From Vicinamibacteria bacterium (GTDB lineage: Bacteria; Acidobacteriota; Vicinamibacteria; Fen-336): a stretch of DNA of 64,000 bases. Positions within the stretch are counted from its first letter, which is position 1, and every line of letters begins with the position of its first letter. Of this stretch, positions 2,924 through 52,606 are shown piece after piece. The stretch lies in assembly GCA_041481445.1 (NCBI GenBank), contig JBGPBV010000007.1:5365-69364 (forward strand), written 5' to 3'. The notes beneath the pieces were generated by a model. It was not told where the DNA came from, searched no databases, and saw only the letters and a program-made list of their open reading frames with translations. The translations under genes were made by a program, and so were the position numbers.

Positions 2924-4002
2924 AAGGGCGGGCGGTCGCGCGCGTGCTCGCCGGCCTCGCTCTCCTCGCGGGGGCGGGCGCGGGCGATCTCCGCGCCGAG
3001 AGCTACGAGGACCTCGTGCGCGCCTCGGTGCGCGGCGACGTCATCGCGGCCGACCGCCTTGCCACCTGGCCGCGCTCCGACCTGCAGCTCCAGTTGAAGT
3101 GGCTGCGCGAGATGCGCGCCTGCGCGCAATGCGGCGAGCGCGCGCTCGCGGACCGGTTCCCGTTCCTGGGGGCCGTCCTCCTCCACACCGACCGCGCGTT
3201 CCGGGACGACGAGGCCGCACGCACCGAGTCACGGGACTTCCATCTCGACTTCGCGCTCGACCTGCTGGAGGCGGCGCCGCCGGCCGTCCGCCAGTTCGAG
3301 CCGGCCTGGTTCCTGGTCGTGGGCGATCATTTCCTGCAATTCATCGAGACGCCGGAAGCGCGCCGGTATTTCGCGGCCGGCCTCTCCCGATTCCCGGGCG
3401 ACGTGCGGCTCCGCATCGGAGAGGGGGCCGCCTTCGAGGCGGAGGCCCGGCTGACTCCGCTGCCCGACATCGTCTACTCGGGCGGATCGCCGACGCGAGT
3501 CCTGCTGGAAGATGCCAGCGCGCGCCGGAGCCTCTTCGTCCAGGCCGAGTCGGCCTTCCGGCGCGCCGCCGAGCTCGCCCCTGAATCCGCGGAGGCACGC
3601 CTGCGCCGCGGCCACGTCCTCATCGACCTCGGGAAGCAGGAGGAGGCCCGGCGCGAGCTGGCCTGGGTCCAGGACCACGTCCCCGCGGGCGACCTTCACT
3701 CCCTGGCCGCCCTCTTCCTCGGCCGGGCCGACGAGAAGGCGGGCCGCTGGGAAAGCGCGGCGACGCAGTTCCGCGAGGCGGCCCGCACCGGTCCGCCCGG
3801 GGCGCGCGCCGCCTACGTGGCGCTGGCCCATGCCCTCGACCGGCTGGGGCGCGCGCCGGAGGCGCAGGAGGTGGTGGACTCGCTGCTCGCCCGTCCCACC
3901 CGCGACGATCCGTTCGACGGCTACATCGTGGGACCGGCCGACGAGAAGGAGCGCCTCGTCGCGGAGATGCAGGCGGCCGCGCGTGCGAGCGCCGCCCCAT
4001 GA
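2920..4002 (+). CDS. Secreted TPR-like repeat protein (hypothetical)
   Basis: GTG 2920 overlaps the truA stop (GTGA). Signal-peptide-like N-terminus VKGRAVARVLAGLALLAGAGA, helical repeat content, ATGA overlap with the downstream VWA gene. The long 2191..4002 track ORF upstream of 2920 is frame noise over truA. Confidence 0.5.
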   Translation: MKGRAVARVLAGLALLAGAGAGDLRAESYEDLVRASVRGDVIAADRLATWPRSDLQLQLKWLREMRACAQCGERALADRFPFLGAVLLHTDRAFRDDEAARTESRDFHLDFALDLLEAAPPAVRQFEPAWFLVVGDHFLQFIETPEARRYFAAGLSRFPGDVRLRIGEGAAFEAEARLTPLPDIVYSGGSPTRVLLEDASARRSLFVQAESAFRRAAELAPESAEARLRRGHVLIDLGKQEEARRELAWVQDHVPAGDLHSLAALFLGRADEKAGRWESAATQFREAARTGPPGARAAYVALAHALDRLGRAPEAQEVVDSLLARPTRDDPFDGYIVGPADEKERLVAEMQAAARASAAP

Positions 4003-48751: not shown

Positions 48752-49146
48752 CAATTCCGCTCTCCGGGCACCGGCGATCCCGCCGGGCCGCCCAGCTCCT
48801 TCGCCATCTGCGCCCCCGGTGCGGCCGGACGCGGCTGCTCGATCACGATCACGCGGCCGGCCGGCGGCGACTGCAGGCCCAGCTCGCGGGTGGCGATCGC
48901 CTCCACCCGGTGCAGGTTCTCCAGGCTCGCCTTCTCGAGGCGCAGCTTCCGGTTCTCCTCGAGCAGCCGCTCGCGCTCGCGCGACATCCGGTCCTGGGCG
49001 CGCGAGGTCTCGCGGATCTTGAGGTGGGGCCAGGCGTAGAGCACGAGGCCGCCCACCAGCGTCATCACCAGCAGGAGCAGCCACCACAGGTCGCGGCTGG
49101 CGCGGGGATCGACCTCGCGCACGACCTGGGAGTTGTCGATCTTCAC
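48751..49146 (-). CDS. ftsL: Cell division protein FtsL
   Basis: 131 aa, single TM ([19 protein letters not shown]) followed by a coiled coil. GTG start. ATGA coupling to ftsI. Confidence 0.75.
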
Positions 49147-50062
49147 GGCTGGACCCGCTCGATCGCTCTCAGGCGCGCGCTGCGCGACCGTGGGTTGCGG
49201 CGCGTCTCCTCCTCCGCCGGGCGGAGCGGCTTCTTCGTGAGCAGCCGGAAGCCGCGCGTGGCCAGGGCGCGGAAGGTCTGCTTGGCCTCGCGGTCCTCGA
49301 GGCTGTGGAACGCGATCACGGCCAGGCGTCCGCCGGCGGCGAGCACGCCCGCGATCCCCTCCAACGCGTCCGCCAGCCCCTCCAGCTCGCGGTTGACCTG
49401 GATGCGCAGGGCCTGGAAGGTCCGGGTCGCGGGGTCGAGGCCGGGACGGCGCGAGCGGCCGGCGGAGCGACGCACGATGTCCGCGAGCTCGGTGGTGGTG
49501 GTGATCCGCCGCTGGCGGCGCGCCTCCACGATCGCGCGCGCGATCCGGCGGGAGGCGTGCTCGTCGCCCCAGCGGTAGATGAGATCGGCCAGCTCGCGCT
49601 CGGGCAGGCGGTTCACGAGGTCGGCGGCGGTGAACCCCTGGGTGGGGTCCATGCGCATGTCGAGGGGCCCCTCCGCGCCGAAGCTGAAACCGCGCGAGGG
49701 CTCGTCGAGCTGCATCGAGCTCACGCCCATGTCCAGGAGGACGCCGTCGGGGCTCTCCCCCGCCATCCGGTCGGGGACCTCGCGGAAGTCCGCGTGCTCG
49801 AAGCGCACGCGCTCCCCGAAAGCGGCGAGCCTCTCGCGCGCGTGGGCGATCGCGTCCGGGTCGCGGTCGAAGGCGACGAGGCGCCCGTCGGGGGCGCTGC
49901 GGCGCAGGATCTCCGCGGCGTGGCCGCCGAGGCCCACCGTGCCGTCGACGTACAGCCCCCCCCGTCTCACCGCGAGCAGCTCCATCGCCTCCGCGAGCAG
50001 GACCGGCTCGTGCCGCCGGAGGCTTCCACCGCCGTCGCGCGCGGGACCCTCGCTCTCGCCCA
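49143..50062 (-). CDS. rsmH: 16S rRNA (cytosine1402-N4)-methyltransferase RsmH (MraW)
   Basis: [13 protein letters not shown]...[15 protein letters not shown]-binding start and conserved C-terminal region. GTG start around 50062; the track ORF upstream of that is frame noise over mraZ. Confidence 0.9.
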
Positions 50063-50065
50063 CAT

Positions 50066-50509
50066 CTAGATCCCGAACCCGGAGAGCACCCGCCCGTCCT
50101 CGTCCGTGAACGGCTCCTTCTTGAACAGGCGCTCGGTGAGGCGCTTCTGGTTCCAGACCGCAAGGTGGTTCTGCAGGCCGAGCACGCTCACGTCGCCGGC
50201 CATGGCCGCGCTCTCGCGCAGGAGCTGGGGGAGCACGACGCGGCCCTGCTTGTCCATCGTCACCGTCTGGCCGAAGAAGTTCACGCGGTCGAGGAAGCGC
50301 AGCTTCGAGGGATTGGTCGACGGCACCTCGGCCAGGCGGCGCTCGATCTCGAGCCACACCGCCATCGGATACACGCGCACGTATTCGCCGGTGACGCTGG
50401 TGACGAACAGCTCCGCGCCGTACTGCTGCTCGATGAGCAGACGGAAGCCGTTCGGGACCTTGAGACGTCCCTTGTCGTCGACGCGCGCCGGATGGTTGCC
50501 GCGCAGCAC
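50066..50509 (-). CDS. mraZ: Transcriptional regulator MraZ (canonical copy, first gene of dcw operon)
   Basis: Two MraZ/SpoVT-AbrB-like repeats (DDKGRLKVP and DKQGRVVLP). GTG start (track shows MLRGNHP). Confidence 0.9.
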
Positions 50510-50610
50510 GTTCGCTCGCTCCGCCGGGGCCCGCTCGCCCGCGAAGGGGAGTCCCCTCCGGGGCGAGGTCAGCGACCTCGCTCAGTCGCGGCGCTCACGC
50601 CCTCTTTGGG

Positions 50611-50648
50611 ACACGTGACGCCACTTTTTTCCACAAAATTCCACTCCC
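50611..50648 (-). promoter_or_regulatory. MraZ operator: direct GTGG repeats at 10-bp periodicity (GTGGAATTTT GTGGAAAAAA GTGGCGTCAC GTG)
   Basis: On the minus strand, immediately downstream of the predicted -10, CCAC appears on the plus strand at 50621, 50631 and 50641. This is the expected form of an MraZ box (tandem GTGG/TGGG repeats). Confidence 0.55.
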
Positions 50649-50649
50649 G

Positions 50650-50678
50650 AGTCTAGAGGTGACCCGGAGGGCTGTCAA
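50650..50678 (-). promoter_or_regulatory. Pmra-like sigma70 promoter: -35 TTGACA, 17-nt spacer, -10 TAGACT
   Basis: Minus-strand sequence TTGACAgccctccgggtcacctcTAGACT lies about 140 nt upstream of mraZ, just downstream of the paralog stop. Confidence 0.55.
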
Positions 50679-50688
50679 GGGGGAAAAG

Positions 50689-51189
50689 TCACATCCGCTT
50701 GGGTTTTTCCTGTGGATGACCGTGCTCGGACGGCCCCGTGGGAGCGGGAGCGGGGGGAAGCGGCCATTGGACGTCGAGGGTAGCGTCCTCGAGGACCTTC
50801 TCGGACTCGGCCACGAAGGCCTCCCAGCGCTCGGGGGCCCAGACCTCGAACCGGTTCAGGACGCCGATGACCAGGGCCTCGCGGTCGAGCTGCGCGCCGA
50901 GGCGCAACGGCGCGGGCAGGAGGATGCGGCCCTGCACGTCGAGCTCGCAATCGACGGCGCGGCTGGTGAGCAGCCGCGTGAGCGCCTTGGCCGGCTTGCT
51001 GAACGCGGGCAGGGCGCGGAGCTGGCTCTCGAGGCGCGACCACTCGGACGGCGGGTAGGCGGCCAGGCACTGATCGAGCACGGTGACGACGAGCCGCGGC
51101 GCGCGATCGGCGAGCGCGCGGCGGAACGCCGCGGGCACCGGGAGGCGTCCCTTGGGATCGATCCGGTGGCGATAAGTCCCTTTGAACAC
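50689..51189 (-). CDS. MraZ paralog (second, divergent MraZ-family regulator)
   Basis: VFKGTYRHRIDPKGRLPVPAAFRR matches the MraZ N-terminal consensus (MFRGxxxHxIDxKGR). A second DxxGR repeat is present (DVQGRILLP). Likely GTG start at 51189; the track ORF extends to ATG 51234 through the GTGG repeats. Confidence 0.65.
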   Translation of the reverse strand: MFKGTYRHRIDPKGRLPVPAAFRRALADRAPRLVVTVLDQCLAAYPPSEWSRLESQLRALPAFSKPAKALTRLLTSRAVDCELDVQGRILLPAPLRLGAQLDREALVIGVLNRFEVWAPERWEAFVAESEKVLEDATLDVQWPLPPAPAPTGPSEHGHPQEKPKRM

Positions 51190-51234
51190 AGCGAGCTGGA
51201 AGTATTCCACACTTTCTTCCACTTTTCCACACAT
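51190..51234 (-). promoter_or_regulatory. Second GTGG-repeat array (TGTGGAAAA GTGGAAGAAA GTGTGGAATA) immediately upstream of the mraZ paralog
   Basis: Three GTGG motifs at about 10-bp spacing, the same repeat type as the operator upstream of canonical mraZ. Confidence 0.45.
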
Positions 51235-51237
51235 GTC

Positions 51238-51282
51238 CTCGGCCCGGCCCGCCGTGGCACCAGAGCGGCGGGCCGGGCCGAG
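51238..51282. repeat. Perfect 17-bp GC-rich inverted repeat (CTCGGCCCGGCCCGCCG - 11 nt - CGGCGGGCCGGGCCGAG) in the mraZ-paralog/folC divergent intergenic region
   Basis: Read directly. The arms are exact reverse complements. Confidence 0.7.
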
Positions 51283-51307: not shown

Positions 51308-52606
51308 ATGCCGTCCCCTCGTCGCTCGTCGGCTTACCTGGCCTCGCGCATCAAGCTCGGCATGAAGTTCGGGCTGGAGACGATGCGGGCCCTCGTGGCC
51401 GCGCTCGGACATCCCGAGCGCGAGTTCGCGACGATCCTGGTCGCGGGCACCAACGGCAAGGGCTCGGTGGTCGCCTACACCGACGCCGTCCTGCGCGCAA
51501 GCGGCCTGCGCGTCGGCCGCTACACCTCGCCCCACCTCGTGGACGTCAACGAGCGCATCGTGGTCGCCGGGCGTCCCATCACCGACCGCGCCCTCGACCT
51601 GGTGGTGGACGCGGTCCGCGAGGCCGCCGAGGAGCGAGGACGTTCGGGGGCGCTGCCCGCCTCCCCGACCTTCTTCGAGGTCCTGACCGCGGCCGCCCTC
51701 GTCCACTTCGCGCGCGAGAAGGTCGAGGTGGCCGTCCTCGAGATCGGGATGGGCGGGCGCCTCGACGCCACCAACGTGGCCGACCCGCTGTGCTCGGCCA
51801 TCGTGACCGTCGACCGCGACCACGAGGCCTATCTCGGAAGGACCCTGGGGGCGATCGCGCGCGAGAAGGCGGGCGTCCTGCGAAGGGCTCGGTCCACCGT
51901 GCTCGGGCCGATGGCGGAAGAAGCCCGGGCGGCCATCGAGGAAGAGGCGGCACGGCTGGACGCGCGCCTCCTGGACGTGACGCGCGAGACGACGCTGGCC
52001 CCGGACGCGAAGGAGGCCGTCACGCTCCATACCCCGTCCCGCGCCTACCGCGGCCTCCGCCCGCTGCGCGGCGCGCACCAGCGCGCCAACCTGGCCGTCG
52101 CCGTCCGCCTCCTCGAGGCGGCACGCGAGGCGGGGGTCGCCGTCGATCTCGGACGGGTGGCGGAGGGCGTGGCGCGCACGCGCTGGCCGGGCCGGCTGCA
52201 GCGCCTCCCCGGGCGGCCGCCGATCCTGGTGGACGGCGCGCACAACCCGGCGGCGGCGCGCGCGCTGGCCGAGGAGCTGCGACGCGAGCGCCCGTTCGTC
52301 CTCGTCTTCGCGGCCATGGCGGACAAGGACATCGCGGAGATGGGACGCATCCTCTTCCCGCTGGCCCAGGCCGTCGTGCTCACACGGCTGGGCGTCGACC
52401 GCGCGGCGCCGCCGGAGGAGATCGCGCGGCGCGTGGGGCCGGCGGCCGCCCGCGCGCACCGCGCGCCCGCCTGGCCGGCCGCCCTGGCCCGGGCCCGGCG
52501 CCTGACCGGCCCGCGCGGCCTGGTGGTGGCGGCGGGGAGCCTCTACCTGGCGGGCGAGGTGCTGCGGTCGGTGGGCGCGCGCCGCGGCAGCAGGCCGCGG
52601 AAGTAG
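51308..52606 (+). CDS. folC: Bifunctional folylpolyglutamate synthase / dihydrofolate synthase FolC
   Basis: VAGTNGKGS P-loop and Mur-ligase-family fold. N-terminal IKLGMKFGLETMRALVAALGHP is typical of FolC. ATG 51308 within the longer track ORF. Confidence 0.85.
   Translation: MPSPRRSSAYLASRIKLGMKFGLETMRALVAALGHPEREFATILVAGTNGKGSVVAYTDAVLRASGLRVGRYTSPHLVDVNERIVVAGRPITDRALDLVVDAVREAAEERGRSGALPASPTFFEVLTAAALVHFAREKVEVAVLEIGMGGRLDATNVADPLCSAIVTVDRDHEAYLGRTLGAIAREKAGVLRRARSTVLGPMAEEARAAIEEEAARLDARLLDVTRETTLAPDAKEAVTLHTPSRAYRGLRPLRGAHQRANLAVAVRLLEAAREAGVAVDLGRVAEGVARTRWPGRLQRLPGRPPILVDGAHNPAAARALAEELRRERPFVLVFAAMADKDIAEMGRILFPLAQAVVLTRLGVDRAAPPEEIARRVGPAAARAHRAPAWPAALARARRLTGPRGLVVAAGSLYLAGEVLRSVGARRGSRPRK

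Follow-up and report, generated by a model that had tools for sequence, protein, structure and literature searches.

We describe two tandem mraZ genes at the head of a cluster of division and cell wall (dcw) genes, found in a stretch of 64,000 nucleotides (referred to below as the window) of contig JBGPBV010000007.1 from a Vicinamibacteria bacterium. MraZ is among the most conserved bacterial regulators and is treated as the single-copy head of the dcw cluster. In the window, both mraZ genes lie on the minus strand, and each is preceded by its own array of GTGG boxes. The upstream gene, mraZ1 (50689..51189, 166 amino acids, GTG start), encodes an accessory MraZ; it is followed by mraZ2 (50066..50509, 147 amino acids, GTG start), which is the orthologous MraZ of the lineage and has rsmH (mraW, 49143..50063, minus strand) as its next gene. 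We propose that the two genes and their arrays form a two-tier, serial pair of self-repressing MraZ units with read-through transcription and probable cross-binding between them, a reading to which we assign a probability of roughly 0.6.

A first-pass annotation, made from the sequence alone, had placed two tandem mraZ genes here and suggested that both products be aligned to PF02381. Both open reading frames are present, and each protein matches PF02381 in two stretches, which are its two SpoVT/AbrB-like half-domains, scoring 111.2 bits for MraZ1 and 67.3 bits for MraZ2 (Pfam cutoff 23). The identification of mraZ1 draws on PF02381, TIGR00242, AlphaFold2, the ratio of nonsynonymous to synonymous substitution (dN/dS), and in-frame stops in its relatives, and that of mraZ2 on PF02381 and orthology. 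mraZ1 opens the dcw cluster but does not lie directly before rsmH, as mraZ2 stands between them; this is a positional trait and not a trait of the protein family.

Each half of MraZ1 carries a DxxxR motif (D11-P-K-G-R15 and D84-V-Q-G-R88), and the equivalent motifs of MraZ2 are D11-D-K-G-R15 and D86-K-Q-G-R90. Residues D11, G14, R15, D84, G87, and R88 of MraZ1 are invariant in alignment A2, as is K13 in alignment A5; position 13 is Q13 in the subclade that includes locus L019. K13, R15, and R88 correspond to K13, R15, and R86 of Mycoplasma genitalium MraZ, the residues through which that protein reads four GTG(T/G) boxes (PMC12957436). The AlphaFold2 model of MraZ1 has a mean pLDDT of 80, with one of the five models confident, and matches the MraZ structures of M. 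genitalium and M. pneumoniae (9qlg and 1n0f) with a Foldseek E-value of 2e-11 and TM scores of 0.82–0.84. At the sequence level, MraZ1 matches the Mycoplasma MraZ structures with 59 bits, versus 27 bits for MraZ2. The MraZ fold occupies residues 1–136. The Pro-rich C-terminal extension pointed out in the first-pass annotation is real: it spans residues 137–166, ends in PQxKPxR, is modeled by AlphaFold2 with low confidence, and is probably disordered. Its length varies among relatives, in which the whole protein is 151–177 amino acids long.

The curated TIGR00242 model gives MraZ1 131.8 bits, above its cutoff of 98.35, and MraZ1-type proteins from both subclades score 105–132 bits. MraZ2 is below the cutoff at 71.2 bits, and the same is true of six MraZ2-type orthologues from four acidobacterial classes, with 73–91 bits. 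The low score of MraZ2 reflects a divergent lineage and not another family: its position, operator, and Pfam match are all classical. The curated model thus misses the true acidobacterial orthologue and accepts the accessory copy. The label “canonical” originally given to the downstream gene is appropriate with regard to position and orthology, but not with regard to sequence, since the upstream gene is the more consensus-like of the two (132 versus 71 bits).

Species-representative genomes were scanned with an alignment of MraZ2-type proteins, giving 80 Acidobacteriota loci labeled Vicinamibacteria, Thermoanaerobaculia, Terriglobia, and Polarisedimenticolia. In 70 of the 80 there is no second copy, and the sole mraZ encodes a protein of about 146 amino acids of the MraZ2 type (one of these, L015, is counted as single-copy with just 89 nt of upstream sequence). 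A second, upstream mraZ occurs only in L001–L007 (66–74% identity to MraZ1 of the window) and in L019, L020, and L033 (44–45%). In a neighbor-joining (NJ) tree of MraZ2 proteins, the tandem loci and the window form one clade, indicating that the pair arose once and was kept. Six more contigs with an mraZ1-type gene have the order mraZ1-mraZ2-rsmH-ftsL, or its beginning where the contig ends early, and about 75 metagenome hits show the pair wherever the contig is long enough. The question of whether relatives also carry two mraZ copies, raised at the outset, can therefore be answered for one clade of soil Acidobacteria, all of whose members with sufficient sequence (17 loci and about 60 further metagenome contigs) have retained the pair together with both arrays. 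We note that L020 and L033 are two tandem loci from a single metagenome-assembled genome (MAG), which suggests a strain mixture. The single-copy loci L008, L052, and L070, labeled Bifidobacteriaceae, Gemmatimonas, and Acidimicrobiia, have a typical Vicinamibacterales-type mraZ and promoter, and probably represent MAG binning contamination or mislabeling.

In BLASTP comparisons, MraZ1 matches MraZ2 with 60.8 bits (29% identity), Escherichia coli MraZ with 88.6 bits (34%), and a gut-Firmicute MraZ with 91.3 bits (35%); MraZ2 matches the E. coli and gut-Firmicute proteins with 61.6 and 69.7 bits. A joint NJ tree separates the MraZ2-type proteins of all classes from a group comprising MraZ1, E. 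coli, and Firmicute MraZ, with a bootstrap of 100/100. Within this tree MraZ1 is monophyletic (95/100), and its internal branching mirrors that of MraZ2. A recent tandem duplication was rejected: MraZ1 lies beyond the acidobacterial MraZ clade, and its similarity to MraZ2 is lower than that to the E. coli and Firmicute proteins. The description of the two genes as MraZ paralogs is therefore right in that both are genuine MraZ genes, and wrong if it is taken to mean that the upstream gene is a local duplicate. The simplest reading of the sequence data is a single acquisition, or a retained old paralogue, at the base of the clade, followed by vertical co-inheritance. Base composition gives no clear sign of foreign origin, the G+C content at third codon positions (GC3) being 0.89 in mraZ1 and 0.94–0.96 in the neighboring genes.

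Both genes are under purifying selection. For mraZ1, dN/dS is 0.04–0.44 overall and 0.23–0.44 for the window's gene against relatives; for mraZ2, whose product is 90–95% identical to many acidobacterial proteins, dN/dS is 0.03–0.30 overall and 0.08–0.30 for the window's gene. The proportion of synonymous differences (pS) in comparisons with the window is 0.34–0.54. These values, which are well below 1 for mraZ1, together with its retention in the whole clade, rule out that mraZ1 is a pseudogene or a decaying copy.

The start of mraZ1 has to be settled before its upstream region can be interpreted, because the reading frame is open as far as an ATG at 51234, beyond the GTGG array. In the locus L085 (GCA_041499675.1), which is identical to the window, the public gene call (3001–3540, equivalent to 51234–50695 of the window) begins at this ATG; it is too long and takes in the operator. 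The public call in L001 (3487–3891) errs in the other direction: it uses an internal GTG, is too short, and loses the N-terminal DNA-binding motif. On a coding reading, the GTGG run would encode MCGKVEESVEYFQLA, which would have spoken against the first-pass view of the array as untranslated DNA. An in-frame stop between the array and GTG 51189 is present in 36 of the 64 distinct relatives of the window-type subclade, from which it follows that the array is untranslated and that GTG 51189 is the start. In addition, ATG 51234 is absent from most relatives, the nearest ATG in L001 being in a different frame, and the N-terminus read from GTG 51189 fits the MraZ consensus from its first residue onward. 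In the 73 distinct sequences, the conserved stretch begins exactly at the T preceding the first GTGG, and the GTG start follows the last GTGGAA by 15 nt in 62 of the 64 window-type members. We give a translated array next to no chance, refuted as it is by the stops in relatives. The sequence comparison thus identifies GTG 51189 as the start of mraZ1, as the first-pass annotation had preferred, and corrects the start codon in the public records.

We turn now to the downstream regulatory region. The gap between mraZ1 and mraZ2 is 179 nt long (50510–50688) and contains a promoter, P2, and an operator, Op2, both on the minus strand. P2 (50650..50678) is a sigma-70-type promoter of sequence TTGACA-N17-TAGACT, which matches 10 of 12 consensus positions, is the only hit of the promoter scan in 1.6 kb, and starts 10 nt past the mraZ1 stop. 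Its TTGACA is kept in all the tandem loci and in nearly all of the 70 single-copy loci. Op2 (50611..50644) starts 5 nt after the −10 element of P2, and consists of the array GTGGAATTTTGTGGAAAAAAGTGG (50644–50621), which is the sole GTGG-N6-GTGG-N6-GTGG match in 64 kb (0.00 expected), and a fourth box, GTGT (50614–50611), which is poorly conserved. A three-box array with 10-bp phasing directly follows the −10 element in the majority of the 80 acidobacterial loci. In most single-copy loci, TTGACA-N17-TA(C/G)TAT is followed by three GTGGA-N5 repeats with 10-bp phasing and then the start codon, and in some of these loci the middle box is degraded to TTGG, CTGG, or ATGG. On these grounds P2, Op2, and mraZ2 are predicted to be an ordinary Pmra-type autoregulatory unit, in which Op2 is the ancestral MraZ operator.

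The single-copy loci show some further features of this region. In several, such as L009 and L014, the third box is often GTGGAG, located about 9 nt before the GTG start, so that its GGAG doubles as a Shine-Dalgarno sequence. The 5′ untranslated region (UTR) of such loci is almost wholly operator; the mraZ2 leader of the tandem clade is longer, at about 134 nt in the window.

The end of mraZ1 also contains conserved DNA. In 59 of 64 distinct tandem loci, including L003–L007, L019, L020, L033, and metagenome loci, the sequence CCACA is found 36–45 nt upstream of the TTGACA; in the window it occupies 50711..50715 on the minus strand, within the last codons of mraZ1 and 37 nt upstream of the −35 element of P2. 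It is the reverse complement of TGTGG, the outer box of the upstream array. The two subclades read it in different frames, one as Pro-Gln and the other as Ser-Thr, which implies that the constraint acts on the DNA. CCACA may thus be an additional, inverted MraZ site that brackets P2. The pattern CCCAA-N10-ATTTT-N4-TTGACA is common to the tandem loci and the single-copy Vicinamibacterales, and from this comparison the end of the Pro-rich tail of MraZ1 seems to be read out of the ancestral region upstream of the promoter. Single-copy Vicinamibacterales (L009–L065 and others) have a conserved element, GGCGAAAAT.A.GCGTAA(G/C).., about 45–60 nt upstream of the −35 element of mraZ, part of which (GGCGAAA...CCCAA-N10-ATTTT) persists in the tandem loci, within and just past the end of mraZ1.

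The upstream regulatory region is organized differently. It contains a 31-bp block, Op1 (TGTGGAAAAGTGGAAGAAAGTGTGGAATACT, 51201..51231, minus strand), which is unique in the window and kept across relatives. Within it, the array GTGGAAAAGTGGAAGAAAGTGTGG (51230–51207) is the sole GTGG-N4-GTGG-N8-GTGG match in 64 kb, with 0.03 expected by chance. Its boxes are at 51230–51227, 51222–51219, and 51210–51207, that is, 21–44 nt before the start codon. As first suggested, the upstream array and the downstream operator have one box type in common, the GTGG core being shared. The spacing of about 10 bp that had also been suggested applies only when GTGT is counted as a box: the GTGG cores themselves have spacings of 8 and 12 bp in all sequences from either subclade, and in the window-type subclade the outer boxes read GTGTGG, so that a 10/10 register (GTGT-N6-GTGG-N6-GTGT) is also available and is at least 90% conserved. 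The block is nearly invariant over the 73 distinct sequences, while 34–54% of synonymous sites differ. In ten aligned loci the block TGTGGAAAAGTGGAnGAnnnTGTGGAAnACT is invariant in nine, with one change in L019, and the flanks to its left are unrelated. Op1 occurs only in loci that carry mraZ1. Both array regions are A+T-rich islands, with 39% and 44% G+C, in a genome of 72% G+C (the window itself is 72% G+C). We regard Op1 as the probable MraZ operator of mraZ1, a prediction from its boxes and their conservation.

The synteny upstream of Op1 varies among loci (folC, a CarboxypepD_reg gene, or DUF4143 genes), and no conserved sequence lies on the left side of the block. The promoter of mraZ1 should therefore sit within or just after Op1. 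A candidate, P1 (51201..51229, minus strand), can be picked out inside the block, consisting of TGGAAA (51229–51224), a 17-nt spacer, TG (51209–51208), and AATACT (51206–51201), and would represent an extended −10 promoter. The GTG start is 11 nt after its −10 element, without a Shine-Dalgarno sequence, and in the L019 subclade an ATG lies 7–8 nt after it, which suggests that the mraZ1 mRNA is leaderless or nearly so.

The two-tier circuit that we propose builds on gene identities, fold, conservation, selection, the uniqueness and conservation of the operators, the P2 consensus, and the start codon, all of which are established. The downstream unit (P2, Op2, and mraZ2) would be the ancestral acidobacterial form of the classical Pmra arrangement, in which a MraZ oligomer is expected to bind the three 10-bp-phased GTGG boxes after the strong promoter P2 and thereby to repress its own operon. 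A second unit, composed of Op1 and mraZ1, appears to have been added directly upstream at the base of one clade, whose records are labeled Vicinamibacteria. It is likely to have come from outside the acidobacterial MraZ lineage and to have been inherited vertically since, with both genes under purifying selection. MraZ1, with its DNA-reading residues kept, would most likely bind the GTGG(A) boxes of Op1; these probably overlap the weak extended −10 promoter of mraZ1, and binding would result in self-repression. Transcripts from P1 would continue past P2 and Op2 to cover mraZ2 and the division genes. Read-through is expected because the mraZ1 stop (50689) lies just 10 nt ahead of the −35 hexamer of P2 (50678), too little space for a terminator, and a scan of the region gave no terminator-like site. 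Finally, each MraZ probably also binds the operator of the other, given that both operators use the same GTGG core.

Several observations weigh against this circuit. The 8/12 spacing of the GTGG boxes in Op1 is unlike that of every characterized MraZ operator, and in the L019-type subclade the alternative 10/10 register offers only ATGT-GTGG-TTGT. Conservation of Op1 exceeds the GTGG cores, taking in the T that precedes and the AA that follows each outer box, which implies a further constraint from a promoter or another protein. P1 matches the consensus at only 8 of 12 positions, below the 9/12 threshold of the scanner, which did not report it. It is weakened further by L133, in which an 8/12-type array lies inside the 5′ UTR and a separate promoter, TTGACA-N17-TATATT, is placed about 55 nt upstream of it. 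A source lineage for mraZ1 was not found, the closest protein matches listed all belonging to the same clade. DNA binding, repression, P1, read-through, and cross-talk are themselves inferred from the sequence. The last point concerns DnaA: the other strand of Op1 box 1, TTTTCCACA, is a perfect match to the DnaA-box consensus TT[A/T]TNCACA, and one of only two in 64 kb.

This match raises the possibility that Op1 is wholly or partly a cluster of DnaA boxes, and that DnaA, bound to the outer TGTGGAA(A/T)A boxes, ties mraZ1 (and by read-through the dcw cluster) to the state of replication initiation. DnaA boxes were scored as 9-mers of the form TT[A/T]TNCACA (TGTGGAAAA-like), a consensus that may not be that of Acidobacteria. 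Box 1, including its A-run, is invariant in all 73 sequences, and arrays of the same spacing with better DnaA-like boxes (GTGGATAA) are found in gut-metagenome contigs that have no mraZ nearby. However, the other consensus match in the window is located inside Op2, a classical MraZ operator. The MraZ and DnaA motifs evidently overlap by nature, and a match to the DnaA consensus is therefore no argument against MraZ. The remaining boxes of Op1 fit DnaA less well: box 3 has one mismatch and varies at DnaA position 2 (TATT, TTTT, TCTT, or TGTT before CCACA), and the middle box (TCTTCCACT), which shares one base with box 1, is a poor fit with two mismatches. Op1 also travels strictly with mraZ1. 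We therefore consider a DnaA-box cluster distinctly unlikely. A composite site, in which MraZ1 reads the GTGG cores and DnaA the perfect or near-perfect outer boxes, appears very unlikely to us. If it were true, the mraZ1 unit would be a sensor, with read-through transcription and the action of MraZ1 at Op2 relaying the replication-initiation state to the division cluster, and the 8/12 arrays next to mraZ in L133 and in the group of L123 would indicate a broader, undescribed connection of DnaA with MraZ.

Two other explanations keep MraZ in place but change what mraZ1 contributes. MraZ1 might act mainly via MraZ2, as a modulator or anti-repressor that forms mixed oligomers or competes at Op2, with Op1 being merely a promoter region. 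Such a role would suit the finding that MraZ proteins form ring oligomers whose interfaces govern DNA binding (PMC12957436), the constant adjacency and probable co-transcription of the two genes, and the conserved inverted TGTGG upstream of P2 within the end of mraZ1. At 29% identity, however, shared interfaces are unlikely, and MraZ1 keeps all of its DNA-reading residues and Op1 three intact GTGG boxes; little probability remains for this explanation. Alternatively, mraZ1 could be redundant, an acquired mraZ with a transplanted operator that supplies a second dose of the same repressor and has no distinct logic. The same GTGG core in both operators and the same contact residues in both proteins are what this would predict, and in most pairs the evolutionary rate of MraZ1 is about double that of MraZ2. 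Against this, the pair has been kept in all clade members over a deep divergence, with mraZ1 down to 44% identity and dN/dS well below 1, and the architecture of Op1 is fixed and unlike that of Op2, making redundancy unlikely. A two-tier pair of self-repressing units remains our preferred reading.

Much of the locus is of known kinds, namely the MraZ fold, the GTGG repeats, and the Pmra-type promoter. Pmra of E. coli K-12, read directly from its sequence, is TTGACA-N17/18-TAAACT-N7-GTGGGaaattGTGGGgcaaaGTGGG, followed by mraZ-rsmH-ftsL, and thus has the same layout as P2, Op2, and mraZ2 in the window. E. coli MraZ represses its own operon (PMC12957436; bioRxiv 10.1101/2022.02.09.479790). E. coli has a single mraZ, whereas in the window a divergent second mraZ, preceded by an array of its own, is found directly upstream, and the orthologue of the Acidobacteriota itself falls below the TIGR00242 cutoff. 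In Bacillus subtilis, repression depends on three GTGG[A/T]G repeats separated by 4-nt spacers (bioRxiv 10.1101/2022.02.09.479790); their GTGG(A) box and 10-bp phasing are those of Op2. The B. subtilis genome contains this triple repeat only once, just as both arrays are unique in the window. B. subtilis has one gene and one operator, and the 8/12 spacing of the GTGG boxes in Op1 differs. The contact residues of M. genitalium MraZ (cryo-EM structures 9sz7 and 9r4j) are kept in both proteins of the window, and the MraZ1 model has a TM score of 0.8. The fourth box of the M. genitalium promoter has a counterpart in Op2, in the form of the GTGT at +10. M. genitalium MraZ is reported to tolerate altered spacing only at high protein concentration (PMC12957436). 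Sequence identity is 29–30%, and the Mycoplasma cluster has one mraZ.

An analogy for the interplay of two regulators of one superfamily in a single genome is offered by AbrB and Abh of B. subtilis, which are SpoVT/AbrB-type paralogues with overlapping specificity and mutual regulation. Unlike the MraZ pair, their genes do not lie next to each other or at the head of the dcw cluster, and phased GTGG repeats are not their binding sites. A search of an incomplete literature collection found no paper on two mraZ genes heading a dcw cluster; the term mraZ1p, considered as a possible reference to a second mraZ, is only the name of an E. coli promoter. What is new here is the conserved arrangement of two genes and two operators, the non-acidobacterial affinity of the upstream gene, and the fixed 8/12 geometry of its array. 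The clade represents a natural experiment, in which two divergent MraZ proteins have been maintained side by side over a long evolution with the same core but with 10/10 versus 8/12 geometry. Comparison of Op1 with Op2 bears on how box spacing and oligomer geometry set the specificity and cooperativity of MraZ, a question raised by the 2026 M. genitalium structures.

A relaxed version of the 8/12 pattern gave many hits in metagenomes outside the acidobacterial clade. In two independent lineages the array adjoins mraZ. One is L133 (2900–3060, minus strand), a non-acidobacterial metagenome contig with a very divergent mraZ-rsmH pair, whose 5′ UTR contains TGTGGAAAAGTGGATAAAGGTGTGGAAAAC with 8/12 spacing as in Op1. 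The other is a human-gut Firmicute (L123, 10700–10830, minus strand; L134, L140, and L188), in which the mraZ strand carries TATAAT, then GTGG-N6-GTGG-N6-GTGG, and then an inverted 8/12 array (TTTTCCACAgagTTTTCCACTTTTCCACA); its three inverted boxes, TTTTCCAC(A), are either DnaA-like or inverted MraZ boxes. A different arrangement is found in L093 (2500–2565) and the gut contigs L137, L151, L153, L164, L180, and L208, where five boxes of the TGTGGA(A/T)AA type occur in both orientations. The cluster is just past dtd, where a noncoding region of about 540 nt begins, and has no mraZ nearby. It may represent either a group of DnaA boxes or a distant MraZ site. The pattern scan also picked up short tandem runs of GTGGAAAA and GTGGAAAAGTAA, unrelated to mraZ, in soil contigs (L096, L109, L116, L117, L121, L132, L136, L144, L160, L169, L173, L181–L186, L196, and L205). 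No further GTGG arrays, such as might indicate a regulon, were found elsewhere in the 64-kb window.

Downstream of the pair, rsmH, identified from the open reading frame list, is the first dcw gene after mraZ2 and is followed by ftsL, ftsI, murE, and the rest of the dcw cluster on the minus strand; the gene calls in L085 show Pfam Methyltransf_5, FtsL, and PBP domains downstream of the pair. A search of the region against Rfam gave only sub-threshold chance matches, and a structured RNA in the mraZ2 leader was rejected, as its folding is no better than that of shuffled sequence (z −1.7). On the upstream side, a folC-like gene on the plus strand starts at 51308, divergent to mraZ1 and separated from it by a 118-nt spacer. 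Between the folC start and Op1, at 51238–51282, there is a perfect G+C-rich inverted repeat, which has no T-run after it; it is absent from the other tandem loci and identical in L085, which is from the same organism. The repeat is 17 bp long with an 11-nt loop (−43 kcal/mol, z −4.9), and stops 6 nt short of the first box of Op1.

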